Shown one piece after another: positions 5,585 through 51,829 of a stretch of DNA of 52,031 nucleotides (its first letter is position 1; every line of letters starts with the position of its first letter). The stretch lies in the sequence record DRR723986_2279, one strand, 5' to 3'. The position numbers were made by a program, and so were the translations under genes. A model generated the notes under the pieces. It was given only the letters and a program-made list of their open reading frames with translations, did no database searches and was not told the DNA's origin.

Positions 5585-7138
5585 ATGGCTGACCCACAGG
5601 TAAAACAACCCGTCGTTCTGATTATTCTGGATGGCTTCGGCTACCGGGAAGCACCGCAGGACAACGCCATTTACCACGCCAATACGCCCAATTGGGACGC
5701 ACTGTGGAAAAACCAGCCGCACACCCTGATCTCAGGCTCAGGGCTGGATGTTGGTTTGCCAGACGGCCAAATGGGCAATTCGGAAGTCGGCCACATGAGC
5801 CTGGGGGCGGGCCGCATCATCTACCAAAATATTACCCGCATTGACAAAGAAATTGCCGATGGCAGTTTCTTCGACAACGACGTTTACAAAGCCAATATCG
5901 ACAAAGCGGTCGCCGCTGATAAAGCCGTGCACATTTTCGGCCTGCTATCCCCGGGCGGCGTCCACAGCCACGAAAACCATATACTGGCAATGATCGATAT
6001 GGCCGCTCAACGCGGCGCCAAAAAGGTGTATGTACACGCCTTTCTAGACGGCCGCGACACACCGCCACGCAGCGCCCAGGCCTCGCTGGAAAAAGTCGAC
6101 GCCAAATTTGCCGAACTCGGCTGTGGCAGGATGGCGTCAATGATCGGCCGCTACTACGCCATGGATCGCGACAACCGCTGGGACCGCGTTGAAAAAGCCT
6201 ATCGCCTGCTGACCGAAGCAGAGGCCGAGCACCGCTACAGCGCTAGCCAAGACGCCCTGAGCGCCGCCTATGCTCGCGACGAAAACGATGAATTTGTCGC
6301 CGCCAGCGTTATTCAAGCCGAGGGCCAGGACAGCGCCGCCATTGCCGATGGCGATACCGTCATCTTTATGAACTTCCGTGCCGACCGCGCTCGTGAAATT
6401 ACTCGCGCGTTTGTGGAAAACGATTTCGATGGCTTTGAGCGCCGTGTTCGCCCGGCGCTTGCCGGCTTTGTTATGACTACCGAATACGCCGACAGCATCG
6501 ACGCGCCCGTGGCCTACCCGCCGGAGAATATCCAAAACAGCCTCGGTGAACTGCTGGAGAAACACGGCAAGACACAGCTGCGGATCGCCGAAACGGAAAA
6601 ATATGCCCACGTTACGTTCTTCTTCAGTGGCGGCCGCGAAGCACTCTATCAGGGTGAAGAGCGCAAGCTGATCAACTCCCCCGACGTTGCCACCTACGAC
6701 TTAAAGCCGGAAATGAGCGCCCCGGAAGTCACTGAAGAGCTGGTCGCGGCCATACGCAGCGGCAGCTACGATGCGATTATCTGCAACTATGCCAACGGCG
6801 ATATGGTGGGCCATACCGGCGTTTTCGACGCCGCCGTAAAAGCCGTGGAAGCACTGGACGACTGCATTAAACAGGTTACCGATGCCGTTCGTGAGGTCGG
6901 TGGCCACTGCCTGATTACCGCGGACCACGGCAACTGTGAGCAAATGCTCGACTACGACGCCGACCAACCGCACACTCAGCACACCACCGAGTTGGTGCCG
7001 CTGGTGTACGTGGGCGACGACACCGTAACCCTGACAGCCGAAGGCGGGCGCCTCGCTGATATCGCACCGACGATGGTCGCGCTGCTGGGCATTGCTCAGC
7101 CGGAAGAAATGACCGGCAAGAACCTGATCAGCCACTGA
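5585..7138 (+). CDS. gpmI: 2,3-bisphosphoglycerate-independent phosphoglycerate mutase
   Basis: [37 protein letters not shown]; alternative start 5570. Confidence 0.97.
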
Positions 7139-29351: not shown

Positions 29352-29368
29352 AGCAAAATCCAGGCCAA
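29352..29368 (-). promoter_or_regulatory. Sigma54 promoter of the dmp operon (Po-like)
   Basis: Minus strand TTGGCCTGGATTTTGCT; IHF-like AATCATATGGTTG at 29383-29395. Confidence 0.8.
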
Positions 29369-36300: not shown

Positions 36301-37281
36301 CTAGAAAAATCTATCAAAATGCAACTGATCGAAAGGTACAGATTTCTCCAACATCAGTAGTTTTTGCACAGCTGACGTCATCAAGGGAGGCCCACAAAAG
36401 TAGTATTCCTTCCCTAAATAGTCAGTAATATGTTTTTGAACCACATCATGAATAAATCCGCGCTCGCCACTCCATTTTTCGTCGGCCTCTGACACTGCGG
36501 GGATAAAGTTAAAATTCTCGATTCCAGATGTGATATTTGACAGGTAGGATAAATTTATTTCTTCGCTTGATCTGACGCCGTAGAAGAAATCTATACTAGA
36601 TACATCTTTTCCTTGTATATATTTTAGTATTGATACTATGGGGGAAAGCCCCGCACCGCCCGCTATTAATACCAACCCCTTATCCGATTCTTTATAATAG
36701 GAATTCCCATATGGACCATCTAAAACAATATCTCTTAAATTCAGCTTTCGATCAAAGAGATGCTCTGAAACCAATCCCCCAGGCTTTTTTTTAATTATAA
36801 AACTAATTTTATTTTCATCACTTTGAATAGAAGATACCGAATAAGCCCGCTCCCCGACCCCTGGTATATCTAGCATGTAATACTGTCCTGCCTTGTAGGA
36901 AGCAGGCCTATCAATAGAAAAAATGAACTCAGCGACATCTTCGCTTATATCAACAACCCCAAAAATACTCGCACTGCATCTCTCCGGCGGAATAATTTCC
37001 TTCGGATTAGAATTTATATCTTTTTCAATTTTTATATCTGTGGTCGGAATAGACTGACAGGCTAAATAGTTACCTTTCCTTATATCCCTGCCTGACAAAC
37101 CACTAAATTCACCTTCTTTCCTAATGAGTTCGCCTTCAATCAATTTCACTTTACACAAACCACACCCCCCGGAATTACATTCGTAATCCAAGGGGATAGA
37201 TCGCCTAAGCGCTGACCGTAAAACCGTGTCGCCCTCATCACAGACGTAAGTGATATTATTATTAATTTCTATGTTAGGCAT
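36301..37281 (-). CDS. tmoF: Toluene monooxygenase NADH:ferredoxin oxidoreductase
   Basis: YECNSGGCGLC, RAYSVS, GGAGLSP, YFCGPP, HFDRFF. Confidence 0.9.
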   Translation of the reverse strand: MPNIEINNNITYVCDEGDTVLRSALRRSIPLDYECNSGGCGLCKVKLIEGELIRKEGEFSGLSGRDIRKGNYLACQSIPTTDIKIEKDINSNPKEIIPPERCSASIFGVVDISEDVAEFIFSIDRPASYKAGQYYMLDIPGVGERAYSVSSIQSDENKISFIIKKKPGGLVSEHLFDRKLNLRDIVLDGPYGNSYYKESDKGLVLIAGGAGLSPIVSILKYIQGKDVSSIDFFYGVRSSEEINLSYLSNITSGIENFNFIPAVSEADEKWSGERGFIHDVVQKHITDYLGKEYYFCGPPLMTSAVQKLLMLEKSVPFDQLHFDRFF

Positions 37282-37282
37282 T

Positions 37283-38275
37283 TCACGACCCTCTATTTGT
37301 CACAGAGTCCATTAGATTTTCGTATTTAGATATAATTTCATCCTTATTGAATGAGCTAGACTCAAATCCGTCTAGGTAAGCCAAAATAGCGTCCTTACCT
37401 AGAGGCTTCCATTTATCTGTCCATTCATCTATGGGACCAACGCCCCCCCCATTAGAAGATTTATAAAATTCAGTTAACTTTCTTGCCCATTTAATGTGTC
37501 GTTCCACATCCTTAATCTGGGAATCAATGACAAGCGAAAGAAGTAAATCGTTGTTATTTTTTGACTCTTCAGAAAGCGGCTTTAGAACACCTTCCATAAC
37601 TGCAGGAATAATTACGCCTGAAAGAGATACAAAACACTCGCCCCAATCATAAGTAATTAAATTCTTTTCAATTAACTTTCTAAATCCTTGGTAATATTCA
37701 GATTTTTCCCAAGCCTCCCTTTCACATGAATTGAAATTTATGTCGGGATGATTTTGAGAAAGCTCGTATGTGCGATAAGCCGTATGCGTAGTAAACCTCA
37801 GATAATCCGATGTTTGAAAGGTAGCGCAGTTTGTAATGGTGCTGGCAGGCGCCATTTGTGCTAAGTATGAAGATGACATCTGCACCCCATGGTAGAGATA
37901 TCTGAGGGGAGTGTAGATTTTTGCTAGTAGGCTTACCCACTCTTTTTCAATTTGGAAATCATGACCTCTCTCGCTGAATTGATCAAAAAGGCTGAATACA
38001 TGACTTTCTTGACCATCCTGCATAAGGTTATATGTGCGATAGACGAGCTGATCTGGGTCAGAAAAATCATCCCAATTCTCTGCTTTAAGCTTTGAATTAT
38101 TACGGTAATTTTTGTACCAGCTATTCATAGGCGAACTTGGTGAAAGCTCCCAAGGCGCATCTTTATTGTTAGTACTGTAATGAAGTTTTTTTGTAACCAC
38201 ATCGTATTCACTCGGCTTCTTTCTATTACCCGAGAGGTGGCTCCATGTTTTCAATGTTTTTTGATGTTGTTCCAT
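37283..38275 (-). CDS. tmoE: Toluene monooxygenase hydroxylase beta subunit
   Basis: LKTWSHLS..RKKPSEY, DPDQLVYRTYNLMQDGQE, YDWGE. Confidence 0.92.
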   Translation of the reverse strand: MEQHQKTLKTWSHLSGNRKKPSEYDVVTKKLHYSTNNKDAPWELSPSSPMNSWYKNYRNNSKLKAENWDDFSDPDQLVYRTYNLMQDGQESHVFSLFDQFSERGHDFQIEKEWVSLLAKIYTPLRYLYHGVQMSSSYLAQMAPASTITNCATFQTSDYLRFTTHTAYRTYELSQNHPDINFNSCEREAWEKSEYYQGFRKLIEKNLITYDWGECFVSLSGVIIPAVMEGVLKPLSEESKNNNDLLLSLVIDSQIKDVERHIKWARKLTEFYKSSNGGGVGPIDEWTDKWKPLGKDAILAYLDGFESSSFNKDEIISKYENLMDSVTNRGS

Positions 38276-38290
38276 TATTTTCACCTTAAA

Positions 38291-38608
38291 TCACAAAGAA
38301 CTTACATAATAGAATCGTGCTTTTTCGGACGACATTTCTATTCGCCCAGCAAACGAAGCTAAATTTACTTCCAACTCGTTCATGTTAAATGGACGACCGA
38401 GTTCCTCCTCAATTGTCTTCCGGTAAAGCACCAATTCTGATTCGGTATAAATCCGAACATATGCGATTTTGTCTTCAACGGTGATTATTTTATCTACGTT
38501 ATCTATTGCTGCCGCTTCTGCGACAGCGGAAGCGAGTTCCCCAGCCCTCATAATTGGCCCAACATTGTTATTGTTAAGTGCTTCCTCAGCGGTTTTATTT
38601 TTATTCAT
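38291..38608 (-). CDS. tmoD: Toluene monooxygenase effector protein
   Basis: [35 protein letters not shown]. Confidence 0.92.
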
Positions 38609-38618
38609 TTTTTTAACC

Positions 38619-38957
38619 TTATTTAGCAGCCATGTAAGGTTCGACTCCATCTATATCCACGTAGATGTTGTCGTCTATAATTTTTGTTGGATATTCAGCC
38701 AAATGACAATCTTTAGGATTAACTCCTTCGCCGGTATCACATTTAAAACTCCACAAATGTGCCCTGCAAATTATCAACCCATCCTCATAAGAACCTTCTG
38801 ATAGAAGAATTTTTTGATGAGGGCACATTGCCTGAAATGCCTTAACCCCCCCATCTTCTACCCCAACAACTAGTATTTCTGTTCCATTAGATGTTTCAAA
38901 GGTATCCATTTCGCCTTCCCAAACATCGTCTAAGCTCGCAATTTTTTCGTAAGCCAT
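38619..38957 (-). CDS. tmoC: Toluene monooxygenase Rieske ferredoxin
   Basis: QAMCPHQ...CRAHLW.F. Confidence 0.93.
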
Positions 38958-38961
38958 ATAC

Positions 38962-39216
38962 TTATCCGTCGTAAACAATATCAAGAACTTCTGTAGGTTT
39001 AATCCCACTTTCCGCCACTGTGATATCTCTAGGGAATAGAGTTTTATCTTTATGCTTTCTTACTCTAAGAACCCCGGACCGCTCCTTTACTCGCCGCCCT
39101 AACGAATGATAAGCACACTTCTTTGCAACTTCGTCCATAGTGTCTTCAGTATCAACAGCAACAAGCTGCACTACGAAATCACCCTGAAAATTCGAGTGGA
39201 TAGGAAACATAGACAT
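38962..39216 (-). CDS. tmoB: Toluene monooxygenase hydroxylase gamma subunit
   Basis: FP...[18 protein letters not shown]...AYH...RRV. Confidence 0.92.
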
Positions 39217-39235
39217 CTACTTCTCCTTATTATAA

Positions 39236-40741
39236 TTAAATTGCATTTTTTAATTTTTCTTTGAACTCATTTACCCATTCATAGTTATGGGCATCTTTAC
39301 CAATTTCGGCGTCGCCTTCAAAACCCATATACTTCAAAGCGCCTTCAAGATTCATTGGCTGAATATCCCCACTTAAAAACCTGTCAATCACACTTTTATG
39401 ATCTGCATATTGCTCTGGATATTCTTCAAAAATCCATTTATCCACTTCGTTAGAAAAATGATACAGTCGGCCATTCTTCTCTACGCTGTATACACTCATA
39501 TCCCAATGTTCGTGCCCAGGGATTCCACAAACCGGCAACTGATTCATGTTATCTACGAGCGGGAGGGTTTCAGGCAAAGTTAGGCCCTCCTTACCCTCAA
39601 GGAGATTTGACGTAATTACATCCCAGCACTCCCCCCATCGTTCATTCCAACCAGGGTATTTTTCTTCCAGCCACTCCCTTTCCTCAGGCGTAACGCCAGC
39701 AGCAGGATTCCACCATACTGTTGGACGCCAATACCAAACTCCTAAGTGATACCCGTGATGGCAGGTATCCAGCTCTTCAATGAACTTGTCCCAGTACCAA
39801 GGTTTATCCAAACCAAGGTCGATTAATGAGCGCTCAAACTGCCCTACAATCCACTCAAGCATGAATTCCTTGAACGACATATTCCGATGCTCAATAGGCG
39901 TGTAGTAATCCATCATCGGGCCTGTTAAGACTGCAAACAGGCGCCAAGACCTCCAGATCGCAACATCTACCTTTTTTTGCGCTTCTTCTTTCTTTCCATT
40001 TTTTACAAGAATTTCCAAGATAGGAGCGCCTTGCTGAGCGTGACGGGACTCATCTGTTTGGATACTTGAAATTAAGCTTGAGAACGTATAATCGCCGGCC
40101 TCAGCCGCATCTGCGGCCAAGCCAAGAAATTGCATATTGGTAAACCCACTTTCAAAACTGAAAGTAAGCATGATTGCGACACTCATTGCGTCCCGGCCAG
40201 CGATGATGTCATCGAAAAGCGATCTAGCCGCTATTGCAGCCCATTCATTCTGATGGTAAGCCTTCCAGGCCCAGTCAAATTGACGGTCTTTTTTGCAGTG
40301 TTCATGCGGAAAAAATAGCTGGAGTTGAGCATGCCTTGTTTCATCCAGCATACCAAATACAGCCATGTTCCTATTTCCAGGTGCCTTGGAAAAACGCGCC
40401 ATACGAGCCTCACCTGTCACAGCGGTGTATTCACCTACAGCGATTGCTCCATAGTGCGCCTTAAGAACACTCACCCAGCCTGGATCAGAGTTTTCTACAA
40501 TACTCGCTCTTTCCAATGCCGCTTTAATTGAGTAAGCCCCAGCATCTTTTTCACGCTGTACTTTTACATATTCGGGGAAGGATATTTTATATGGCTCGTC
40601 AAATTGTTCCCAAGCCGCCATAGATATCCCTTGGCTACCCGACATACTCTCCGGATACAACTCTTCTTCACTTACATATTTTGGCGTCCAGTTAACATCT
40701 CTAACGATGTCATACCATTTTTCTCTAGCGTGTATAGCCAT
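39236..40741 (-). CDS. tmoA: Toluene monooxygenase hydroxylase alpha (diiron) subunit, T4MO-like
   Basis: QREKDAGAYS, YGAIAVGEY, DETRH, FESGFTNMQF, DESRH; alternative start 40747. Confidence 0.95.
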   Translation of the reverse strand: MAIHAREKWYDIVRDVNWTPKYVSEEELYPESMSGSQGISMAAWEQFDEPYKISFPEYVKVQREKDAGAYSIKAALERASIVENSDPGWVSVLKAHYGAIAVGEYTAVTGEARMARFSKAPGNRNMAVFGMLDETRHAQLQLFFPHEHCKKDRQFDWAWKAYHQNEWAAIAARSLFDDIIAGRDAMSVAIMLTFSFESGFTNMQFLGLAADAAEAGDYTFSSLISSIQTDESRHAQQGAPILEILVKNGKKEEAQKKVDVAIWRSWRLFAVLTGPMMDYYTPIEHRNMSFKEFMLEWIVGQFERSLIDLGLDKPWYWDKFIEELDTCHHGYHLGVWYWRPTVWWNPAAGVTPEEREWLEEKYPGWNERWGECWDVITSNLLEGKEGLTLPETLPLVDNMNQLPVCGIPGHEHWDMSVYSVEKNGRLYHFSNEVDKWIFEEYPEQYADHKSVIDRFLSGDIQPMNLEGALKYMGFEGDAEIGKDAHNYEWVNEFKEKLKNAI

Positions 40742-40782
40742 TTTCATTCACCTATTATCTTTAAAATAATGCATCTCTACAA

Positions 40783-40799
40783 AGCACGCATCGTGCCAA
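40783..40799 (-). promoter_or_regulatory. Sigma54 promoter of the tmo operon
   Basis: Minus strand TTGGCACGATGCGTGCT; IHF-like 40816-40828; UAS-like TTTACCATATGATCAC 40853-40868. Confidence 0.8.
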
Positions 40800-40958
40800 C
40801 AAAAAAACCCATGCTTTTCAATTAGTTACACTCCTATCACGACGACAAAACATTTACCATATGATCACCAACATTGTTTTTTTATTATTTCATCACTGCT
40901 TTTCTGAAAAATCTAAATCAAAAAACACTTAGCTTGGAAGGAAGCTAAAAAATTATAT

Positions 40959-41645
40959 TTATTTCCAATAATATCCATGGAAAGAATTATTGCTTGGGGT
41001 ATCAAACAATCCAAATATTTTACTTGGGGTAACATACCCCCCCAACCCAAAAGCAATTCGCAAAATATGAAGTGATGGCATAGAATTTTTGAATTTATTA
41101 TTCTTACTCCCCCCAATATTTGATTTACCGAACGTAGAGTTCCAAAGCTTCTCACTCTCCCATAATTTCATACAATTTCTGCAGTATTCCTCTCTCTCCC
41201 CAAGCCCCCAACCAACCCTTTTTTTATAGGCAGATGAAATCCTATCCACACAGACTACTAAAACCCCCCCAACCCCCAGGGAGTCAATGTGCTCTATAAC
41301 TTTGTCATAAACATCGTCAGTCATCCCTGGCTTTATTTTTAACTCAAAGATGTTTTTTTCATTATCCCGAAAGACAAATTCCTTCAAAATTTCCGCTATC
41401 GCAAACCCACTAAACTCACTTCCCACCGTTCTATCACCTGTGACACCAGGATCTTCAAAGAGGCGTATATCTACTATATTGTTTAAGTATGTTACGGAAT
41501 TGACTGAACCATTCTCTTGAGAGCTTATTATTAAAATCTTTTTGAACTTCCTGTTATTAACTAACCTCTGTAAACTTGACCTTACACGCGCCTCGTTAAC
41601 AATTTTCTCATCACAGTTAAGATACAAAATACTTTTATCCAGCAT
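40959..41645 (-). CDS. Hypothetical protein, possibly degenerate LigB/DODA-fold; paralogue of 16593-17216
   Basis: 228-codon ORF in AT-rich DNA, G-rich RBS, own sigma54 promoter (which argues against the 41750 start). Confidence 0.7.
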   Translation of the reverse strand: MLDKSILYLNCDEKIVNEARVRSSLQRLVNNRKFKKILIISSQENGSVNSVTYLNNIVDIRLFEDPGVTGDRTVGSEFSGFAIAEILKEFVFRDNEKNIFELKIKPGMTDDVYDKVIEHIDSLGVGGVLVVCVDRISSAYKKRVGWGLGEREEYCRNCMKLWESEKLWNSTFGKSNIGGSKNNKFKNSMPSLHILRIAFGLGGYVTPSKIFGLFDTPSNNSFHGYYWK

Positions 41646-41724
41646 CCACCCCCCCTTATCCCAACTTAAGTCATCTATGTACCACCCCCAAAAAATGACT
41701 AGATCACTGCTTCGGCAAGGTAAT

Positions 41725-41740
41725 TGCAATAGACATACCA
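41725..41740 (-). promoter_or_regulatory. Sigma54 promoter of the 41645 ORF
   Basis: Minus strand TGGTATGTCTATTGCA; IHF-like AATCAAGAAATTC at 41778-41790. Confidence 0.7.
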
Positions 41741-41808
41741 CCCTTATCAACCGTGAGCTATCTAACTGTTTTTAGGAGAATTTCTTGATTTACAGCACAT
41801 TTGGCTAT

Positions 41809-41871
41809 TTCACCATTTGACAACTTTGCCCAATTAATTGATCAATTGGTAAATCTTCAGCAGATGATCAA
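41809..41871. promoter_or_regulatory. Cluster of DmpR/XylR-type binding sites upstream of the regulator gene
   Basis: TTCACCATTTGACAAC (41809), TTGATCAATTGGTAAA (41838), TTCAGCAGATGATCAA (41856). Confidence 0.75.
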
Positions 41872-41922
41872 ACGCCCAAGCAGCGATCACGTACATATAA
41901 AAAAATATAAAAGAGGCTATCC

Positions 41923-43623
41923 ATGGCGGCAAAAAACAAAATTCATCCTATCGACTACTCCAACTTTCAGGACCTTACCCAACAAATACGATTTCAGAGT
42001 ACTGAAGGCAAAATCTGGCTAGGGGAACAACGAGTTCTCCTAATGCAAGTTAGCGCTATGGCTGCATTTCGGCGGGAACTCTTAAACACGATAGGCGTAG
42101 AGAGATCAAAAGGGTTCTTCTTAAGGCTTGGCTATCAATCAGGGCTCAAAGATGCTGAGCTTGCAAGGAACCTGAGGCCAGAAAGCTCCGAAATCGACAT
42201 TTTCTTAGCTGGCCCACAGCTACACTCGCTTAAAGGTATGGCGAAAGTCATTCCTCTGGAAGTTAGCATCAACCAAGAAACAGGCCATTTTTATGGGGAG
42301 TTCGAGTGGATTGATTCGTATGAAGTTGAAATTTGCCAAACAGAAGTTGGCCTAATATCAGAGCCAGTTTGCTGGTCACTTTTGGGATATGCTTGTGCCT
42401 ATGCTTCGTCCTTTATGGGAAGGGAAATATTATTCCAAGAAACCTCTTGCAGAGGAGCCGGCGATGAACGCTGTATTATAGTCGGAAAACCTGCCGAAAA
42501 CTGGGAAAACCCCACCCAGTTCCGCAACTACTTTAAATCAGATCCTGTAATAGAGGAGCTTTATGAACTTCAGTCTAAGATCTGCTCGATAAGAGAAGAT
42601 GTAAAAAATCAGGAAGGTAGGTTTTATGGTATTGGGCAGTCTCAATCTTATATTCAAATGTGCGAGACAATTGATAAAGCTGCGAAGAGTAAAGTTGCCG
42701 TATTACTTCAAGGTGAGACTGGAGTAGGTAAAGAGGTTATCGCGAAAAGCGTTCACCTTAGAAGTGACCGCGCAGATCACCCCTTTGTCGCGGTTAACTG
42801 CGCCTGCATACCCCCGGACTTGATAGAAGCGGAACTTTTTGGCGTTGAGAAGGGAGCCTATACAGGAGCCCACCAGTCCCGACCCGGTCGTTTCGAAAGA
42901 GCTAACGGCGGAACAATTTTTTTAGACGAAGTGATAGAACTTAATCCAAGAGCTCAAGCGAGCTTGCTGCGCGTGCTTCAAGAAGGCGAACTAGAACGTG
43001 TCGGTGACAGTCAAACTAGACCTATAGACGTTAGAATCATCGCCGCTACCAACGAGGACCTTTCTGATGCAGTCAAAAATGGCCGCTTTCGTGCCGATCT
43101 TTATTTTCGATTGAATGTATTTCCGGCCTACATCCCTCCCCTGAGAGAACGCCTCGAAGACCTTCCGTTGTTAATTGAGCATTTTGTATCTAAATTTCAT
43201 CAAGAATATAATAAACGCACCCTAGGGCTTTCAGACAAAGCACTAGAAGCATGCCTTAATTATTCTTGGCCAGGAAACATACGCGAATTAGAAAATGTAA
43301 TAGAACGAGGAATAATTTTAACCAATGAAAATGACAGCATTAGCAGAAATTCGTTATTTTCTACAATATCTCAAACAACTAATTCGGCAGATGACGTAGT
43401 TAACAAAGAAGGTGAACTTATCAACACCTTAACTTCATTGCCAGAGTACAACTGGGTTGATCATATCATTGAAGAAGGTATAAGTATTGAAGAAGTAGAG
43501 CTAACATTGATACGGTCTTCAATGGATAGAAACAATAATAATGTCTCTGCCGCTGCCAGACTACTAGGGCTTAGCCGCCCAGCCTTTGCATATAGACTCA
43601 AAAAATTCGGTTTATTAGAATAA
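41923..43623 (+). CDS. DmpR/XylR/TouR-family sigma54-dependent aromatic-sensing activator
   Basis: XylR_N (GKIWLGEQR), V4R cysteines, GETGVGKE, GAYTGA, Fis-type HTH. Confidence 0.95.
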   Translation: MAAKNKIHPIDYSNFQDLTQQIRFQSTEGKIWLGEQRVLLMQVSAMAAFRRELLNTIGVERSKGFFLRLGYQSGLKDAELARNLRPESSEIDIFLAGPQLHSLKGMAKVIPLEVSINQETGHFYGEFEWIDSYEVEICQTEVGLISEPVCWSLLGYACAYASSFMGREILFQETSCRGAGDERCIIVGKPAENWENPTQFRNYFKSDPVIEELYELQSKICSIREDVKNQEGRFYGIGQSQSYIQMCETIDKAAKSKVAVLLQGETGVGKEVIAKSVHLRSDRADHPFVAVNCACIPPDLIEAELFGVEKGAYTGAHQSRPGRFERANGGTIFLDEVIELNPRAQASLLRVLQEGELERVGDSQTRPIDVRIIAATNEDLSDAVKNGRFRADLYFRLNVFPAYIPPLRERLEDLPLLIEHFVSKFHQEYNKRTLGLSDKALEACLNYSWPGNIRELENVIERGIILTNENDSISRNSLFSTISQTTNSADDVVNKEGELINTLTSLPEYNWVDHIIEEGISIEEVELTLIRSSMDRNNNNVSAAARLLGLSRPAFAYRLKKFGLLE

Positions 43624-43647
43624 AAATAGGAGCATTTCATACCTTAC

Positions 43648-43673
43648 GCCCATCTTAAATTATTTAGATGGGC
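43648..43673 (+). terminator. Hairpin after the regulator (possible weak terminator)
   Basis: GCCCATCT...AGATGGGC, poor U-tract. Confidence 0.4.
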
Positions 43674-43800
43674 AATATTTGACAGGTCAGAATTTACCAT
43701 TTGACCCAATTCGTTTACGACCTCACTAAATAAACAGCCCCCCCACTAAAAAGAATATAAATTTCACATAACTTTCAAACAGTTAACCGAAATAAAAAAC

Positions 43801-43816
43801 TGGCATGAATTGTGCT
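43801..43816 (+). promoter_or_regulatory. Sigma54 promoter driving a short, apparently non-coding transcript
   Basis: TGGCATGAATTGTGCT; IHF-like 43773-43785; UAS-like TTTACCATTTGACCCA 43693-43708. Confidence 0.72.
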
Positions 43817-43826
43817 TATTTTGAAC

Positions 43827-43956
43827 ATTATCTGCAGTCTTTCGGGACGTTAGACCGTAGGTGCGGCTAGGTGGGGGCAAATGCTGCTTGTCACCGCCTT
43901 GGAGAGTTACCGCACTCTCACCTCTTGGGGCTACACATTCTGTAGCCCCCTTTTTT
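43827..43956 (+). ncRNA. Candidate structured sRNA, copy 1
   Basis: Between a sigma54 promoter and terminator GGGGCTACA-CATTC-TGTAGCCCC-C-T6; homologous to 51085-51220. Confidence 0.65.
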
Positions 43957-44263
43957 ATCAGCCTCAATGTTAAGTAACATAATTATAATTTCAGCTATCC
44001 ATTTTCGTTTAACACCCACAATTCATCGACATTCGTGAATTTCTATCAGGAAACATGCGCCCCAGCATACACACCACAACAAGATTTGATTAGCAATAGG
44101 CGACTAACACAGTAAAAATATCTCCCATATTTCACCCTTCCAGAAAAACCTCACCATATCGTAAAAAATTTCCTCACCCCGCCCTCCAACAACAGCGGGC
44201 AACGGGCTGCTTTTATTCAATATTCTCCATATATTTCAGTGCGTTAAAATAATAATAACGTCA

Positions 44264-44279
44264 TGGCATAGCCATTGCT
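44264..44279 (+). promoter_or_regulatory. Sigma54 promoter of the second envelope module
   Basis: TGGCATAGCCATTGCT; UAS-like CTCACCATATCGTAAA 44150-44165; IHF-like 44234-44246. Confidence 0.75.
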
Positions 44280-44326
44280 GATACCGCCTTGCCGATACTT
44301 TCAAATAACAACGACGGTAATCATTC

Positions 44327-45316
44327 ATGACGCAGAATTGTGCGCGAGCTGTAAGCCCGCGATCTATCGTACCCACCTGTCTCGCACTAAGTGCCGCGCT
44401 CCTTGCCGCCTGTGAGGCACCGCTGGAACTGGACGCTGTGAACGAGCATGCGCAGCAAGCCATACAGCGCACCGACTATTACCAGGCCATGGCCGGCAAC
44501 AGCGAGCGGACCCTGCTGGTGGGAAACCGCGGCACCTTGCTCGCCAGCGAGGATCACGGCCAACACTGGCAGCGCGAAGCGGTGAACACCAACGCCAGTT
44601 TCATCGATATAGCCAGCTGCCCGAACAATAGTTTTGTGGCGCTGACCTTTGACAACCACGTCTGGCACGGCACCGACCAAGGCTGGCAACAACACGCCCT
44701 ACCCAGCAGCGAGCAGATGATGACCATCACCTGCAGTAGCGATAATCACTGGTGGGTTGCCGGCAGCTTTACAACCTTCCAGCACTCGAGCGACCAGGGT
44801 TTAACATGGCAGACATCCAGCCTGGATGAAGACGCCATCGTCACCAACCTGCAATTTCTGGGTTCCAATCACGCTGTTGCCACCGCCGAGTACGGCATGA
44901 TCCTCACCACTGCAGACAACGGAAAAAACTGGCAGGTATCGGGGTATTTACCTGATGAGTTCTACCCCCATGCCAGCTACTTCCGCTCGCCAAACGAAGG
45001 CTGGGTGGGCGGCCTAAACGGCTTCATCTACCACACCCGCGACGGTGGCGACTCCTGGCAGCGCCAGAGCACAGACACTCAAGCCCCGATTTTTAATTTT
45101 ATACACCATCCGCAGGGACTGTTTGCAGTCGGGGATAACGCCACCGTACTCGCGCTCAACGGTCAGCAATGGTCATCACTGGAAACCCCGAGCATTCCTC
45201 TTTACTTGCGCGCTGTTGCCGCCGACGGGGACACGCTGGTGGCCGCCGGCGGCCGGGGCCTAATGCTTCGCATCGCGACATCACCATCCGCAACTAGCGC
45301 TACCAATAATAAGTAA
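44327..45316 (+). CDS. YCF48-like BNR/Asp-box beta-propeller lipoprotein, copy 2
   Basis: LLAAC lipobox; S.D.G..W repeats (SEDHGQHW, SSDQGLTW, TADNGKNW, TRDGGDSW). Confidence 0.85.
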   Translation: MTQNCARAVSPRSIVPTCLALSAALLAACEAPLELDAVNEHAQQAIQRTDYYQAMAGNSERTLLVGNRGTLLASEDHGQHWQREAVNTNASFIDIASCPNNSFVALTFDNHVWHGTDQGWQQHALPSSEQMMTITCSSDNHWWVAGSFTTFQHSSDQGLTWQTSSLDEDAIVTNLQFLGSNHAVATAEYGMILTTADNGKNWQVSGYLPDEFYPHASYFRSPNEGWVGGLNGFIYHTRDGGDSWQRQSTDTQAPIFNFIHHPQGLFAVGDNATVLALNGQQWSSLETPSIPLYLRAVAADGDTLVAAGGRGLMLRIATSPSATSATNNK

Positions 45317-45331
45317 TCAAGGAACACTATC

Positions 45332-47758
45332 ATGGCACTGCACCGATTTACGCACGCCCTGCACCTGCTGGAGCTGTGGATTTTCAATAACCCGCGCAAA
45401 GTGCTCGTGCTGATCGCATTGCTCACGGTGTTTTTTGCCCTGCGCATTCCGGGGCTAAAAATCTACACCGACTTTGCTGACCTGCTGCCGCAACAGCACC
45501 CCTACATACAACTGCACAACAGTATTAAGGACGATTTTGGCGGGGCGAATGTGCTTGTGGTTGGCATCGAATTCGACGACGGCGACCTCTTTACCAATGA
45601 GCGGCTCGCGCTGATCGACCGCGTCACCCAGGCGGTGGACAACCTGCCCGGCGTGAACCACAACCTGGTATCCAGCGTGACTCACCGCAACTCGCGCAAA
45701 ATCTGGCTTACAGAAGTCGGCAGCATTAACTCCCAGCCGTATTTCGACGCCACAAAAGGCCCCTACAGCAGCGACCAATTAGCCAGCATGAGAGCAGATG
45801 TGAGCGCTAACCCACGCGTATTTGGTCCGCTGGTTGCGCCCGATTTAAAGATGGCGCTGGTAAAAGCGCAGCTCATTGAAGGGCAACTCGACTACGAAAA
45901 CACCTTCAAACAATTGCGGGAATTACGCGATGAGGTGGCGGCACAGGGCGTCACCCTATACGCCACAGGCCAACCAGTACTTGTGGGCTGGGCCTACACC
46001 TACATGGACCAGATCCTGCAAATTTTTGCCTTCACGGTACTCACCATGCTGGCGCTGCTGATTTTTCACTTCCGCAAAGCCTATGGCGTGTTGATCCCGC
46101 TGGGTGGCGTGTTGATCTCGACGATCTGGGGTCTGGGCATTATCAGTCTGCTCGGCTACAACCTTGATCCGCTCGGCCTGGTGATCCCGTTTCTCATCGC
46201 CGCGCGGGCAATGAGCCACGGTGTGCAGCTTGTCGAACGCTACTACGCCGAGGCGGCAACGCTGGGCAACGGCTCGGCGGCAGCCAAAGCCACCTTCGAC
46301 AGCTTGTTCCGCCCCGGCTCACTGGGTGTGGTCTCAGATGCCATCGGTCTGCTGTTAATTTCCGTGGGATCGATCCCCCTGAACACCCACCTTGGCATCT
46401 ACGCCTCACTCTGGGCGATTACCGTGGTATTCAGTGTGTTGGTGGGCGTGCCCCTGCTGCTATCGATTCTACCCACACCGCGCGAACCGCGCCTGAAAGA
46501 AACCGTTTTACGCCATATCGGTGCGAGCAGCTCACGCATTGTGAGCCAGCCGGGAAATGCGACGAAGCTGCTATTTGTCGCCGCGGTCGCTGTTGTACTG
46601 GGCATGGCCGCCGCGTCCCAGGTTCAAATTGGCGACTCCGAACCTGGCTCGCCAATTCTCTACCCCGACCACGACTACAACATTTCCTCTCGCGTGGTGA
46701 ACGAGCGCTTCCCCGGTTCGGAAGAACTCTATGTCGTCGCCGAGACAGATAAAAAAGGCGGATTAAAACGCCCCGATGTTCTGAAGGCACTGGCTGACTT
46801 TCAAGCCCATATGCTCACCGACCCGGGCGTTGGCGGCGCGAAAGGCTTGCCCGATCTGATCAAGCAGGTGAATCGCCTGATGCATAACAACGACCCCCGT
46901 TGGTATCAGATCCCCCACGATGAACGCTACGTCGGCGGCTTGATGTTCACCTATATGGCCTCCAGCCCCATCCCCGGCGCACTGGACGAATTTAACAACA
47001 CCGACGACCAAGTGGCGAACCTGGTCTTCTATTACAAGGACCGCCAGGGCGAGACCATACGTCGCGCCATTCATATGGCCAAGGAATGGATTGCCCAGCA
47101 CGGCAATGACGTCGAGGGCCTTACCATCAAACTCGCCGGGGGCACACTGGGCGTTGCCGCGGCCATGAATGAGTCGGCCTACCAGACCAACCTGATCGTA
47201 CTGCCGCTGGTGTTCTTACTCATCTTTGCCTTTGTCACGCTGTTTTATACCTCCTGGCACGCCGGTGTGATGATGCTGCTGGCAATGTTATTTGCCACCA
47301 CCCTCACCTACGCCTACATGGGATTGTCCGGGCTGAATATCGACATCAACACCGTGCCGGTAATCGCGGTGGGTATCGGCGTGGGCATCGACTACTCCAT
47401 CTACATGATGGATAGAATTCGCGAGGAAATGGCCAAGTGCCAGAACCTGGCCAAGTCCGTACAGCGTGCAATCTCCACCACCGGCATGGCTATTAGCTTT
47501 ACTGCACTAACCCTGATGGCAGGCATTGTCATGTGGGTGATCTTTTCCGACCTGCGCTTTCAATCGGACTCCGCGCTGCTGCTTTGCGTGATGATCGTCA
47601 TTAACGGCATTACCGCCATGCTGCTTGTTCCCTCCTGGGTGCTGCGCTTTAAACCCCGCTTTATTACCGCCGTGTATGCCGACGAAGACGGTGTGCTCCA
47701 CGCGGATTCAACAACCGCAACTTCTGTGGAAAACGCCCTCGGCGTTTCTCAAACCTAG
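45332..47758 (+). CDS. RND-superfamily / MMPL inner-membrane transporter, copy 2
   Basis: FGGAN, GIGVGIDYSIYMMDRIREE; two-repeat TM architecture. Confidence 0.88.
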   Translation: MALHRFTHALHLLELWIFNNPRKVLVLIALLTVFFALRIPGLKIYTDFADLLPQQHPYIQLHNSIKDDFGGANVLVVGIEFDDGDLFTNERLALIDRVTQAVDNLPGVNHNLVSSVTHRNSRKIWLTEVGSINSQPYFDATKGPYSSDQLASMRADVSANPRVFGPLVAPDLKMALVKAQLIEGQLDYENTFKQLRELRDEVAAQGVTLYATGQPVLVGWAYTYMDQILQIFAFTVLTMLALLIFHFRKAYGVLIPLGGVLISTIWGLGIISLLGYNLDPLGLVIPFLIAARAMSHGVQLVERYYAEAATLGNGSAAAKATFDSLFRPGSLGVVSDAIGLLLISVGSIPLNTHLGIYASLWAITVVFSVLVGVPLLLSILPTPREPRLKETVLRHIGASSSRIVSQPGNATKLLFVAAVAVVLGMAAASQVQIGDSEPGSPILYPDHDYNISSRVVNERFPGSEELYVVAETDKKGGLKRPDVLKALADFQAHMLTDPGVGGAKGLPDLIKQVNRLMHNNDPRWYQIPHDERYVGGLMFTYMASSPIPGALDEFNNTDDQVANLVFYYKDRQGETIRRAIHMAKEWIAQHGNDVEGLTIKLAGGTLGVAAAMNESAYQTNLIVLPLVFLLIFAFVTLFYTSWHAGVMMLLAMLFATTLTYAYMGLSGLNIDINTVPVIAVGIGVGIDYSIYMMDRIREEMAKCQNLAKSVQRAISTTGMAISFTALTLMAGIVMWVIFSDLRFQSDSALLLCVMIVINGITAMLLVPSWVLRFKPRFITAVYADEDGVLHADSTTATSVENALGVSQT

Positions 47759-47760
47759 TG

Positions 47761-47787
47761 GGTGCCGGGTGGTCGACACCCGGCACC
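47761..47787 (+). other. Intergenic perfect 11-bp hairpin
   Basis: GGTGCCGGGTG-GTCGA-CACCCGGCACC then TCTTT. Confidence 0.7.
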
Positions 47788-47814
47788 TCTTTCGCTCTAC
47801 AACGAGGATCTGCT

Positions 47815-49743
47815 ATGAAAAAAACAATAAAAGGCCTGCGATTCTGGTGTGCTGCTCTCAGTGGCGCCGCCGGCATATCAATGGTGGGAGGCACTGTGCA
47901 AGCCGACGATAGTACGCATATCGCCGGCTTCTACGAGAACGCGACCTTTGTTCGCGACGGTGTGGGACTGTCGAAGTTTCGCAATACCGTACAACTGGAA
48001 GCGGAGAAGCTGTTTGGTGATGTTGGCAGCTTCAGCAATGTCAGCATCAACGCCACATTTCGCGGCAGCTATGACGGCGTCTACGACCTGAATGACGACG
48101 AATACGGCAAAAATGCGGGCGGCCCAATTCGTCTTCAGGATGCCGTGCGCGGCTACGTTGATCATGGCGATGGTCTCTCCACCTCGAATACGCCGCTTCC
48201 GCCGGGGGCAACGCTGGAGTTCGACAATAACCGCAACCCCAACGACGGCATGGTGGTACTCGGCGAGCACCTGCACAAGCAAAATGGTGGCGTCGCCTTT
48301 GGCGTTCCTGTTCGCCCCTGCGATGTAGACAGTCGCGGCTGTATTGATGACTACCTGGACAAAGACCGCGACGAGCTGCGCTACCAGGAATTCAACGATC
48401 GCTATGACTTTATTCGCGAACTCTACGTCGACTTTGACTTGAACTTCGACAATGGCGACATCCTCAGCACCCGCCTTGGTAAGCAGCAAGTCATCTGGGG
48501 AAGAACCGACTTATTTCGCGTGTTAGATGTTATCAACCCCGTTGATTACTCGCGCAATAATATCTACGACGAGCTGGAAGATATTCGCATCCCCATGTGG
48601 ATATTAAAAACTGACTACCGCATGGGCCCAACCGAGATGTTCGACGGTTTCGCCTTTGACGATCTAAACGTTCAGTTGGTTTGGAACTTCGATAAGTTCC
48701 GCCCACACGATATTGGTCAGTGCGGCCAGCCCAACGTTATTCTCGATGCGGGCTGTTTCTTCCGCGGCATGAACAACCTTTGGGAAAATGGCGGCACCGT
48801 TGCCAACTTCGCTGGCGCTGACCCCAACGGCGGTGTTGCCACCGACTTCGGCCCCGGCCAGATCGGTATTCGCAAAGCCCACATGCCCAGCTGGAGCTTG
48901 TCCAACACGCAAGTCGGCCTGAAATTCGAAGGGGTGTACGGCGATTTGGGCTTCTCACTCAACGCCCTTAACTTCCGCTCACAGCTTCCCTCCCTGCGCG
49001 GCGGCATCCCCGCCGAAAACGGTTTCACCGGGCAGGTTGGCGTATGGCCATCATTGATCGCCTTTGATATTCACTTCCCCCGCGTCACGCTGTTGGGCGG
49101 CTCGCTGGACTATTATGCCCAAAGCATCGACACCGTGATTCGCGCCGAAGTGGCCCACACCAGCGGTGAAGAATTTGCCAATACGCTGCGCAGCGAACTG
49201 TACTCAGAGTCAGATGTGCTGCGCTACGTACTAGGTGCGGATAAAAATATCTTCATTCCCTTCCTCAACGAGCGCCGAGCATTTCTGTTCTCAGGGCAGA
49301 TCTTTGGTCAGCACATCCTCGACCACGAGAGCGAGCACCGCTTGTATGGTGAAGCAGGTATTCCCGACTGGGAACAAAACTGGACCGCAACACTGCTGAT
49401 TAAAGGCTGGTGGATGAACGACCGCCTGAGCCCACAGATCATTGCGGCGCACGATATTCGCGCAGGCTCTTCCACCATTGCCCCCAGCATTGAGTGGCTG
49501 GTGAATGACCAACTCCGCCTCACTGCTGGCTTCAACATCAAAGTTGGCGAAGGCGCTCAGAAGTTTGATGACTGCCGAACCTGTAACCCCTGGGCACCGT
49601 TTACAGAAGCCTATCCCGGCCAACCCGCGGGCGAAACGGCAGGCCTGGGTGGCTACGAGCCACTGGGGCGCTTCCGCGCTGGCCCAATCGGCATGGCCCA
49701 AGAAGAAGATGAATTCCAACTGACTGTTCGCTACAGCTTCTAA
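47815..49743 (+). CDS. DUF1302-family outer-membrane beta-barrel protein, copy 2
   Basis: GAGGA RBS, signal peptide, RELYVD...GKQQVIWGRTD.FRVLDVINPVD...RIPMW, C-terminal YSF. Confidence 0.82.
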   Translation: MKKTIKGLRFWCAALSGAAGISMVGGTVQADDSTHIAGFYENATFVRDGVGLSKFRNTVQLEAEKLFGDVGSFSNVSINATFRGSYDGVYDLNDDEYGKNAGGPIRLQDAVRGYVDHGDGLSTSNTPLPPGATLEFDNNRNPNDGMVVLGEHLHKQNGGVAFGVPVRPCDVDSRGCIDDYLDKDRDELRYQEFNDRYDFIRELYVDFDLNFDNGDILSTRLGKQQVIWGRTDLFRVLDVINPVDYSRNNIYDELEDIRIPMWILKTDYRMGPTEMFDGFAFDDLNVQLVWNFDKFRPHDIGQCGQPNVILDAGCFFRGMNNLWENGGTVANFAGADPNGGVATDFGPGQIGIRKAHMPSWSLSNTQVGLKFEGVYGDLGFSLNALNFRSQLPSLRGGIPAENGFTGQVGVWPSLIAFDIHFPRVTLLGGSLDYYAQSIDTVIRAEVAHTSGEEFANTLRSELYSESDVLRYVLGADKNIFIPFLNERRAFLFSGQIFGQHILDHESEHRLYGEAGIPDWEQNWTATLLIKGWWMNDRLSPQIIAAHDIRAGSSTIAPSIEWLVNDQLRLTAGFNIKVGEGAQKFDDCRTCNPWAPFTEAYPGQPAGETAGLGGYEPLGRFRAGPIGMAQEEDEFQLTVRYSF

Positions 49744-49761
49744 TAATAGAGAGGACACACC

Positions 49762-51084
49762 ATGTTTAACTATCAACGTTTAAAACGCACCGTGCTTGCC
49801 AGCTGCGCGGCCTGCCTGCTGGCGGGCAACGCAATGGCCAATGATGCGCTGATCAACAACTCCTTCCACCCTTACAAGGAGTCACTGCCCAGCCACCCAG
49901 GCCTTAGCGCTGGCACTGTCATTAACAAGGACAATGTTGCCCAGTTTAAAGACCTGCTCGACCCCGCTTTTCTACATTTTGTCGAGCAAGGCTGGACAAC
50001 CATAACCGTAGGCGAGACCACCTCCTTCGACCTGCATAGCAGCTATATTGACGCCACCCGCGCGTCACTCGGCAAGGTAACGCTCGGCGAGAAAGTGGGT
50101 GAAATCAGCGGCTGGCACGCCGGCCGCCCCTTCCCGGAGGAACCCAAGGCCGACGACCCACGCGCGGGTGAAAAGCTGGCGTGGAACTACAAATACGGCT
50201 ACAACTGGGGCGACAGCGCCGCGATCTACCCCTTCTACTGGAAGTACCGCGACATGAATACCGCAGCGGTGGAGCGCACCATTAAATTCAATTTCCATTT
50301 CTTGAACTTTAAAGGTCGCGTTAACCAGCAACCCACCCCCGAAATTACGCCGAACCCGTCAGACCTGTTCCGCGCAATCTATGTGCAGGTGCTAGACCCC
50401 TACGATGTGCGCAACACGCAGTTGTTGATCCATCGCGCTGCCGACGACCTCAAGCGTGATAACTCGTGGTTGTACCTCGGCTTTCAGAGACGCGTTCGCC
50501 GCCTCGCTACCGGCCAGGTTACCGATGCCTTCCTCGGCTCCGACCTAATGATCGAAGACTTCGAAGGCTATAACGGGCGCATCTCCGACATGAACTGGAA
50601 GTACAAAGGCACCCGCTACATGTTAATGCCGTTCTACAACCACAATGCCCTGCAGCTGGACAGCGAAACCCATAGCGATGATGACGGCTACCAAGTGGTC
50701 GCCTTCAGCGGCAAGGGCGGCTGCTTCCCAAACATCACCTGGCAGCTGCGCAAAGTGTACGAAGTGGAAGCCACCCCGGTCGACGAGGGGCACCCTCTTT
50801 CGAAGCGTATTCACTTTATGGATGCACAAACCTTCACGATTCCGCGCACCGTGTCCTACGACCGCAAGGGCAGCCTGTGGAAGACCTTCACCATCGGCCA
50901 GGCCCACCCCGACCATCACCTGCCGCAAAACAAAGGCAGTGGCGTTTCGATCGACGACAGCTTCAGCATGATCGACGTGCAAGCCAGTCACTGCACCACC
51001 GGGCAATTCAAAGGCCAAGTGGATCCCTCACTCTCACCCGCCAGCATGTTTAGCGTTCAACACCTGCGCGCTACCGGCAGCTAA
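49762..51084 (+). CDS. DUF1329-family periplasmic protein (LolA-like), copy 2
   Basis: Signal peptide; G.PFP, WLY..QRRVRRL, YDRKGSLWK. Confidence 0.85.
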   Translation: MFNYQRLKRTVLASCAACLLAGNAMANDALINNSFHPYKESLPSHPGLSAGTVINKDNVAQFKDLLDPAFLHFVEQGWTTITVGETTSFDLHSSYIDATRASLGKVTLGEKVGEISGWHAGRPFPEEPKADDPRAGEKLAWNYKYGYNWGDSAAIYPFYWKYRDMNTAAVERTIKFNFHFLNFKGRVNQQPTPEITPNPSDLFRAIYVQVLDPYDVRNTQLLIHRAADDLKRDNSWLYLGFQRRVRRLATGQVTDAFLGSDLMIEDFEGYNGRISDMNWKYKGTRYMLMPFYNHNALQLDSETHSDDDGYQVVAFSGKGGCFPNITWQLRKVYEVEATPVDEGHPLSKRIHFMDAQTFTIPRTVSYDRKGSLWKTFTIGQAHPDHHLPQNKGSGVSIDDSFSMIDVQASHCTTGQFKGQVDPSLSPASMFSVQHLRATGS

Positions 51085-51220
51085 TGGCGTCCCTGTCGCT
51101 GCGCTTCGGGACGTTGCGCAGCGGCATTAGCGGGTCTGTCGTCGATAAGCCCTCTTATCGACCCCGCTGAGAGTCACCATGCTCTCGCTCCTTGGGGCTG
51201 CATTACGCAGCCCCCTTTTT
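51085..51220 (+). ncRNA. Candidate structured RNA element, copy 2 (3' UTR of the DUF1329 gene, ending in a terminator)
   Basis: Same loop TTCGGGACGTT, GAGAGT hairpin and GGGGCT...AGCCCC-C-T5 terminator as 43827-43956. Confidence 0.6.
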
Positions 51221-51244
51221 ATCGACAACAACGAGGCCGTCAGA

Positions 51245-51829
51245 ATGCCGCAAGAAACAACGACCGACCAAAGTCAGGCACTCACCGTGGTGGTCTCCCG
51301 CCGCGTTAAACACGGCAAAGAACAGGAATTTGAAGCCCTCAGCAACGAAATGACCAGTCGCGCCAGCCACTTCCCCGGCTACCTTGGCGCCACCATGTTT
51401 CGCCCCGCTTCCGCCGACGACCCGGAATACCGCATCGTGTTCAAATTCAGCGACCCAGCCACCCTCTCCCACTGGGAGCAGTCCCCACGCAGGCTGGACC
51501 TGCTGCAGGAAATTGAACAGCTTCTCGTCACGCCGAGCGAACGGGAAATCACCGAGGGCATTGTCACCTGGTTTACCCTGCCGGGGCACAACCCCGTGCT
51601 GCCGCCACCGCGTTACAAGATGACCCTCGTCAGCTGGCTGGCACTCTACCCCGCCGTCACCGCCATCTTCTTCCTGTTGGGCGACTGGCTCGCCACCCTG
51701 CCACTCCCCCTGCGCACACTCATTGTCACCGCCACCGTAATGCTGCTGATGAGCTACGTGCTAATGCCCCGCATGACGCGCTGGTTCTCGCGCTGGCTTT
51801 ACCCTAAATCGAACACCAATACCCGATGA
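51245..51829 (+). CDS. ABM-like (dimeric alpha/beta barrel) domain protein with two C-terminal TM helices
   Basis: V.RRVK.G.E.EF, FPGYLG, F..W..SP.R, PPRYKM..V.WLALYP; GAGG RBS; the 51179 start lies inside the RNA element. Confidence 0.8.
   Translation: MPQETTTDQSQALTVVVSRRVKHGKEQEFEALSNEMTSRASHFPGYLGATMFRPASADDPEYRIVFKFSDPATLSHWEQSPRRLDLLQEIEQLLVTPSEREITEGIVTWFTLPGHNPVLPPPRYKMTLVSWLALYPAVTAIFFLLGDWLATLPLPLRTLIVTATVMLLMSYVLMPRMTRWFSRWLYPKSNTNTR

Follow-up and report, generated by a model that had tools for sequence, protein, structure and literature searches.

A putative sigma-54 promoter joined to an operon 3′UTR at the edge of a low-GC catabolic island: a candidate aromatic-inducible structured RNA

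Several stand-alone sRNA genes depend on sigma-54, among them CrcZ/CrcY with CbrB, Qrr with LuxO, GlmY and NrsZ. The Pu/Po-type promoters of XylR/DmpR have a UAS ~100 nt upstream, a −24/−12 box and an IHF-like site between the two, and in leader-peptide attenuators of the pyrBI type a short ORF spans the terminator. Other sRNAs derive from 3′UTRs: GlnZ is described as originating from the glnA 3′UTR of a sigma-54-controlled operon under NtrC (bioRxiv 10.1101/2022.04.01.486790), and the flagellar sRNAs of C. jejuni as RpoN-linked and 3′UTR-derived (PMC11187230). Sigma-54-dependent sRNAs and 3′UTR-derived sRNAs are both, then, already known. Our literature search, which is weak evidence of absence, found no sRNA under an aromatic-sensing activator of the XylR/DmpR type.

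We analyzed a short unit in a 52,031-nt stretch of DNA from sequence record DRR723986_2279 (hereafter, “the window” refers to this whole stretch). An initial annotation had read positions 43693–43956 as a stand-alone sigma-54 transcription unit with no credible ORF and a likely aromatic-inducible sRNA as its product, and had named as the alternative a deleted operon whose promoter was fused to its own 3′UTR. Our comparison of the locus with its relatives favours a selected, structured and probably aromatic-inducible RNA, and the alternative very probably describes where that RNA came from.

The unit and its control sites

The unit sits at the edge of a block of low-GC DNA. GC content is 38–47% from ~29.1 kb to 44.15 kb of the window and 53–63% on both sides. 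A genome of the same genus as the nearest genome compared (G040) matches the window up to 29254 and again from 44146, and carries its phenol hydroxylase genes, a GC-rich homologous regulator and a BNR-MMPL-DUF1302-DUF1329 operon contiguously. Because only 2.17 kb separates the two match boundaries in G040, the 14.9-kb segment 29255–44145 is, by this comparison, an insertion or replacement (hereafter, the island) that brought its own regulator in place of a 2.17-kb resident regulator region. The unit lies at the island's right end. At the left end, a sigma-54-like box with one mismatch (~29353–29368, minus strand; found by eye) points toward the resident phenol hydroxylase genes, and the island may be a promoter source for them.

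The island's regulator gene (41923–43623, plus strand) encodes a 566-aa sigma-54 activator of the XylR/DmpR type with the Pfam domains XylR_N, V4R, Sigma54_activat and HTH_8, in agreement with the DmpR-type activator that had been proposed as the unit's neighbour. It points away from the sigma-54 box found at 40783 (minus strand), which heads a six-gene operon for a toluene/phenol-type multicomponent monooxygenase. After this operon, still inside the island, comes a divergent BNR-like/MMPL/DUF1302-like/DUF1329 set, whose DUF1329 gene ends in a plain terminator. In the literature, DUF1302/DUF1329/RND sets are tied to the handling of hydrophobic substrates (AmeABCD; PMC6394551) and, in Zoogloea, adjoin a sigma-54 regulator and phenol hydroxylase genes (PMC7012976). 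A 263-aa ORF (40959–41750, minus strand) with no Pfam match, many G-runs and a strong strand skew occupies the space between an inverted UAS-like pair (41809–41853) and the box at 40783, which lie ~1 kb apart; it differs at 1 of 792 positions from the metagenome contig L085, a second copy of the locus described below.

Directly 3′ of the regulator's stop codon stands a terminator-like hairpin (43648–43673; −13.6 kcal/mol, z −4.4), the regulator's own, whose stem is kept in L085 with three changes in the loop. The control sites of the unit follow it. A UAS-like site had been proposed at 43693–43708, and a recurring motif does lie there: with up to two mismatches allowed, the core 14-mer (43693–43706) of the UAS-like block at 43687–43709 has just three further occurrences in the window (40853, 41809 and 41840), each of them next to the regulator gene and the promoter divergent from it. 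These four matches (the query included) compare with 0.30 expected, and none of 100 shuffles reached four. The proposed IHF-like site (43773–43785) is present with one mismatch to the consensus, but sites of this kind are common (55 in the window versus 38.4 expected), which makes this one weak by itself and statistically unremarkable alone; yet its offset is shared with its counterparts in the promoter of the downstream operon and in that of G040.

The −24/−12 box at 43801–43816 (hereafter, P1) also held up. It has GG at −24 and GC at −12 at the fixed spacing, with no mismatch, and it is one of three matches to TGGCAY-N5-KTGCW in the 52 kb of the window, two on the plus strand (43801 and 44264) and one on the minus strand (40783), versus 0.44 expected; two of 100 shuffles reach three. 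The predicted start site lies at ~43827, and there is no sigma-70-like site between 43622 and 43954. P1 would be a sigma-54 promoter that also requires the XylR/DmpR-type activator encoded beside it.

From this start site to 43956 extends a predicted RNA body that forms an islet of 54% GC amid DNA of 33–37% GC. It ends, ~130 nt past the promoter, in the strong intrinsic terminator that had been predicted there (43927–43956), a GC-rich hairpin followed by a U-tract: the stem at 43927–43949 has nine pairs (six of them G-C) and a loop of five, the tail reads CTTTTTTATC, and none of 200 shuffles folds as well as its −16.3 kcal/mol (z −4.9). The remark that this RNA lacks AANAANAA was equally accurate, with none in 43827–43956.

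Beyond the terminator, an AT-rich spacer (43957–44145; 37% GC) forms the right end of the island and is absent from G040, where homology begins at 44146. It contains an imperfect palindrome, AATTCA-N10-TGAATT (44019–44042), that L085 keeps intact amid variable spacer positions, the closest differences being at 44019 and 44043, and that may be a binding site. Resident DNA then resumes with the second plus-strand sigma-54 box (P2, 44264–44279), which carries its own UAS-like and IHF-like sites, and with the BNR-MMPL-DUF1302-DUF1329 operon (44327–51084, plus strand; Pfam matches, 80% nucleotide identity to G040), on the same strand as P1 and 500 nt from it. The region of P2 (44146–44326) is 83% identical to G040, and on this similarity the box is the promoter of the resident operon, as the initial annotation had held. 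Because P2 is that promoter, the unit is not a leader of the BNR operon in the ordinary sense, and its description as a stand-alone unit stands.

The first gene of the resident operon departs from the rest. When the window is compared with G040 or L085, identity is 67–69% for the BNR lipoprotein (44327–45316) and 92–93% for the MMPL, DUF1302 and DUF1329 proteins, which suggests a different history for the first gene. One sequencing run contains the entire stretch and is probably its source; the comparison with runs covered contigs of four of them. Contigs from runs X2 (DNA) and X14 (an RNA library) match the BNR gene and have unrelated AT-rich sequence upstream of 44259; this switch, at the edge of the −24 box of P2, is a third variant of the junction. 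An X2 contig also covers 43610–43852 with no differences and then ends. The contigs of the RNA runs X14 and X15 cover the BNR gene only, from 44259 or 44312 onward, and are uninformative on the expression of the unit.

Relation of the RNA body to the operon 3′UTR

A tblastn search of the window with the unit's small ORF gave a weak match directly 3′ of the stop codon of the resident DUF1329 gene. Aligned as DNA, the unit and this resident 3′UTR have in common the loop word of the first hairpin, a GAGAGT...CTCTC hairpin and a CTTGGGGCT...AGCCCCCTTTTT terminator. A covariance model (R2) built only from two resident 3′UTRs, those of the window (51085–51228) and of G040, matches 43821–43961 over its full length at 65.6 bits (E 9e-19) and L085 over its full length at 64.4 bits (6918–7058), with no further match anywhere in the window. 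The RNA body is thus a homologue of the 3′UTR of the operon 7 kb away, with its three hairpins, terminator and invariant loop, recognized by a model to which the unit had contributed nothing.

The limits of the match are informative. It starts where the resident stop codon ends and stops just beyond the U-tract, and P1, whose −12 GC is at 43814–43815, is joined to it within a few bases: from the −12 element to the first base of the 3′UTR there are ~5 nt in the window and ~21 nt in L085. Missing between them are the whole 5′UTR and four genes, which amount to ~6.8 kb in the resident copy.

P1 in turn resembles the promoters of such operons. In Pseudomonas sp. WN033 (L002), which has the most similar regulator of 78 genome loci (71% identical), the regulator gene is followed by a 262-nt spacer with a UAS word and a −24/−12 box and then by BNR-MMPL-DUF1302-DUF1329, and in G040, too, a homologous regulator stands directly 5′ of the BNR operon. 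Ahead of the −24 box, P1, P2 and the G040 promoter all have an ACCAT-type word, an A-rich run and TTTCA-N5-GTTAA, the last at equal offset from the box in all three. Because the UAS word recurs with one mismatch upstream of the BNR-operon promoter in L002, and TTTCA-N5-GTTAA and the A-rich run recur in P2 and G040, we take P1 to be the island's counterpart, by orthology, of the promoter of the BNR operon. Given the R2 match and this likeness, the unit very probably originated as a promoter fused to the 3′UTR of its own operon after gene loss, which is what the initial annotation had offered as its alternative. The ancestral P1 would have driven a BNR-MMPL-DUF1302-DUF1329 operon for envelope transport, whose four genes would have been lost in the low-GC catabolic island.

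Outside the window, the searches recovered the three-hairpin element from L085 and G040 only. Among 40 genomes of the family it occurs in one, G040, which was itself a training sequence of the model. DUF1329 orthologues gave 29 loci from 22 of 401 genomes (48–92% identity); four of these loci produced a score at all, and only that of G040 has the element. Three orthologues at 83–84% identity gave terminator-only matches of 14–19 bits, and the L002 genome likewise has a terminator without the three hairpins. Another model, R1, produced nine weak matches (18–31 bits) in 151 genomes of the order; the best five of the nine alignments proved to be generic terminators without the hairpin-1 loop and were set aside. 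DNA searches were similarly sparse: no match to 43625–44326 in plasmids, none in G001, only the resident promoter part in the family (in G040, 1 of 40 genomes), and in the order 5 of 401 genomes with short AT-rich matches (23–42 nt) that leave the RNA uncovered. Searches of 79 loci with blastn and tblastn (the regulator loci L002–L079 and L001), later extended to 139 loci, matched only L085. An Rfam search of 43400–44500 and 50950–51400, which takes in the fused and the resident copy, found nothing near a gathering score; the best match of the unit reaches 18.9 bits where the gathering score is 41, and consists mostly of the terminator, as does a similarity to suhB/mmgR (E 0.39) that we rejected.

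Fold, divergence and competing readings

The fold was compared across four sequences, the two fused units and the two resident 3′UTRs, which represent effectively three lineages; the consensus structure was predicted from the same four sequences in which pairs were counted. RNA identity is 56–59% between the fused and resident classes and 68% between the two resident 3′UTRs. The four helices comprise 32 pairs, in which 96.9% of cells are paired; both sides have changed in 10 of the 32. Hairpin 1 (43829–43863) contributes 6 of these among its 13 pairs, hairpin 2 (43869–43899) contributes 3 and the terminator 1, a compensatory pair relative to the resident copy; hairpin 3 (43902–43919) has 6 pairs and 100% of its cells paired. 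The fold covaries: none of 500 shuffles reaches the observed value, and slid controls give 0–2 such pairs.

The 11-nt loop of hairpin 1 (43841–43851), which carries GGA, is invariant in all four sequences. This loop word is not a dispersed repeat: it has three copies in G040 and none in three other genomes. The two additional places where it occurs in G040 do not belong to copies of the element. Its complement has 11 matches at up to two mismatches versus 13.3 expected, none of them at a start region, and duplex energies between the whole RNA and targets are uninformative against a background mean of −51 kcal/mol; neither analysis pointed to a target or partner.

The two fused units are the only independent copies known. 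L085 is a metagenome contig collinear with window 36923–45036 that keeps the whole unit; its resident flank and G040 share 97.6% identity, which places it in a different host background from the window. The two are 100% identical over 36923–42597 and diverged beyond. The switch, at 42597/42598 inside the regulator gene, is sharp (from 100% identity to ~7% divergence) and looks like a recent recombination breakpoint. Past it, the 3′ part of the regulator gene has pS 0.235 and pN 0.020, and non-coding DNA differs by 18.1% (43624–43800), 13.7% (43971–44145) and 19.3% (44146–44326). For comparison, between the window and G040 the resident 3′UTR differs by 32%, less than the synonymous sites of the adjacent gene (pS 0.655).

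Against this background, the RNA body differs at 7 of 130 positions and the flanking non-coding DNA at 91 of 533 (Fisher p 4.8e-4). The lower divergence belongs to exactly this segment, beginning at the predicted start site and ending at the terminator: there is no difference at 43826–43867, and the 27 nt after the U-tract have seven. All seven changes in the RNA fit the fold, three being one-sided changes in hairpin 2 that keep pairing and four lying in unpaired positions. The 23 nt of the UAS block are identical amid ~18% flank divergence, the −24/−12 box and the terminator are kept, and the IHF-like site has one change at an N position. L085 also has 16 extra nt directly after the −12 element (~6898–6913, corresponding to window 43817/43818) with a 6-nt direct repeat at the flanks, which gives a predicted RNA of ~146 nt; it looks as if either the window had undergone a slipped-strand deletion from the state seen in L085, or L085 a duplication. 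Because the RNA body differs less than its flanks and the limits of the block are the start site and the terminator, we read the pattern as purifying selection on the transcribed segment, in what is a single pairwise comparison within a mosaic region, where a local recombination patch could mimic constraint.

Purifying selection in L085 and the covariation of the fold lend support to our preferred reading, that the unit is an aromatic-inducible structured RNA under selection, for which we consider the chances evenly balanced. In this reading the RNA would be made, would be aromatic-inducible and would act as RNA. With an aromatic effector present, the activator would bind the UAS, IHF would bend the DNA between the UAS and P1, and transcription would start near 43827 and stop at the terminator near 43956. 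The product would be a ~130-nt RNA with three hairpins and a terminator hairpin, and it may act via the invariant hairpin-1 loop with its GGA, by pairing with a target or by binding a protein. Going further, one may tentatively see here the birth of an sRNA gene, though this is less likely than not. The structured 3′UTR domain of a sigma-54-driven transporter operon would have been freed by the near-exact loss of four genes and would now be transcribed straight from that operon's former promoter under the aromatic-sensing activator; acting in trans via the hairpin-1 loop, as an RNA or as a protein-binding decoy, it would couple a horizontally acquired toluene/phenol monooxygenase island to the physiology of its host.

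The unit may instead be an inert relic, a reading that we think rather unlikely: the fusion would be a by-product of losing a redundant operon copy, P1 may fire, and the RNA would be idle. Its starting point, origin by gene loss, is well supported, the unit is confined to the island lineage among the sequences searched, and the target search found none. By the same reading the conservation would stem from a recombination patch, in a region that is a mosaic, identical up to 42597 and diverged beyond, or from lower mutability of a GC-rich hairpin block. Such explanations sit poorly with a low-divergence block whose limits match the predicted start site and the terminator end, with the contrast to the flanks at the p value given above, with seven of seven changes fitting the structure, and with the persistence of the promoter, UAS and IHF-like site amid surroundings that have diverged by ~18% and acquired indels.

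A small-protein gene is improbable. By this reading the selected product would be the peptide of a 30-codon ORF (43881–43973, plus strand), and the claim of no credible ORF was indeed too strong. This is the only ORF of at least 25 aa kept in both the window and L085 (a minus-strand ORF of 67 aa and a plus-strand GTG ORF of 38 aa are not kept), and 29 of its 30 residues are identical. Codons 1–29 have five synonymous and no non-synonymous changes (pS 0.254 versus 0.235 in the regulator gene), an SD-like purine-rich run precedes the ATG by 4–6 nt, and the in-frame codons just 5′ of the ATG have residue-altering changes. The ORF, however, runs through the −16.3 kcal/mol terminator to a stop codon beyond the U-tract, so that terminated transcripts would lack a stop codon; only three of the five synonymous changes fall before the terminator end, and the last 14 nt carry four changes, including the sole residue change. 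Constraint thus gives out at the terminator, short of the stop codon; judged from this one comparison, it tracks the boundaries of the RNA, not those of the ORF. The SD-like run and the ATG lie inside hairpin 2, in its stem and loop respectively, where pairing is kept by the three changes noted above, and the resident 3′UTR homologues have no ATG or ORF at the corresponding place. The exact peptide is absent from a collection of 15 billion proteins, and its three matches among 1.84 billion representatives are repeat or low-complexity proteins with no real homologue among them.

Very improbable, finally, is an attenuator or second promoter, by which partial read-through from P1, possibly as ribosomes translating the small ORF cross the hairpin, would put the BNR operon under the island regulator: the island did replace the 2.17-kb resident regulator region and P1 does face the operon on the same strand 500 nt away, with an ORF overlapping the terminator, but that terminator is strong and fully conserved, P2 comes with a −24/−12 box and UAS-like and IHF-like sites of its own, and the 190-nt spacer diverges near the flank rate.

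Comparison with known systems

If the RNA is active, the locus would be a dated, sequence-level example of a stand-alone sRNA gene arising from the promoter and tail of an operon, with the ancestral state, a resident operon with the same 3′UTR, 7 kb away in the window for comparison, and the 3′UTR of the resident operon would itself be suggested as a functional RNA. Should the unit be inert, it would still be a clean promoter-terminator fossil, liable to be miscalled by an sRNA predictor.

Like the Pu/Po promoters, P1 has a UAS-like site ~100 nt upstream, an IHF-like site and a −24/−12 box beside an activator gene and a multicomponent aromatic monooxygenase operon; unlike them, it stands before no catabolic or transport gene, and just 130 nt and a terminator follow it. 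The short ORF that crosses an intrinsic terminator upstream of a same-strand operon recalls pyrBI, whereas the downstream BNR operon has its own promoter, the sensing logic of an attenuator is not evident and constraint ends at the terminator instead of the stop.

With CrcZ/CrcY, Qrr, GlmY and NrsZ the unit shares a −24/−12 promoter and a short predicted transcript that runs to an intrinsic terminator with no annotated protein gene, together with a candidate enhancer-binding-protein site. It differs from them in its activator, which is of the aromatic-sensing XylR/DmpR type, in having no A-rich Hfq/Crc motifs (0 AANAANAA), and in an RNA body that derives from an operon 3′UTR and comes near the threshold of no Rfam family, CrcZ/CrcY included.

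As a class of product, the unit stands nearest to the sigma-54-dependent sRNAs and to the 3′UTR-derived sRNAs of sigma-54 operons. With GlnZ and the C. jejuni flagellar sRNAs, as they are described, there is a parallel in RNA origin: here, too, the RNA body corresponds to the 3′ end of an operon under sigma-54, whose terminator it shares. The position of such an sRNA, directly after a stop codon and ending at the mRNA's terminator, is held exactly by the resident copy at 51085–51228. The fused unit has a promoter and no gene in the upstream place, and it is in this that it departs from the GlnZ-type arrangement: its coding genes are gone and its promoter abuts the UTR, so that processing would be unnecessary.
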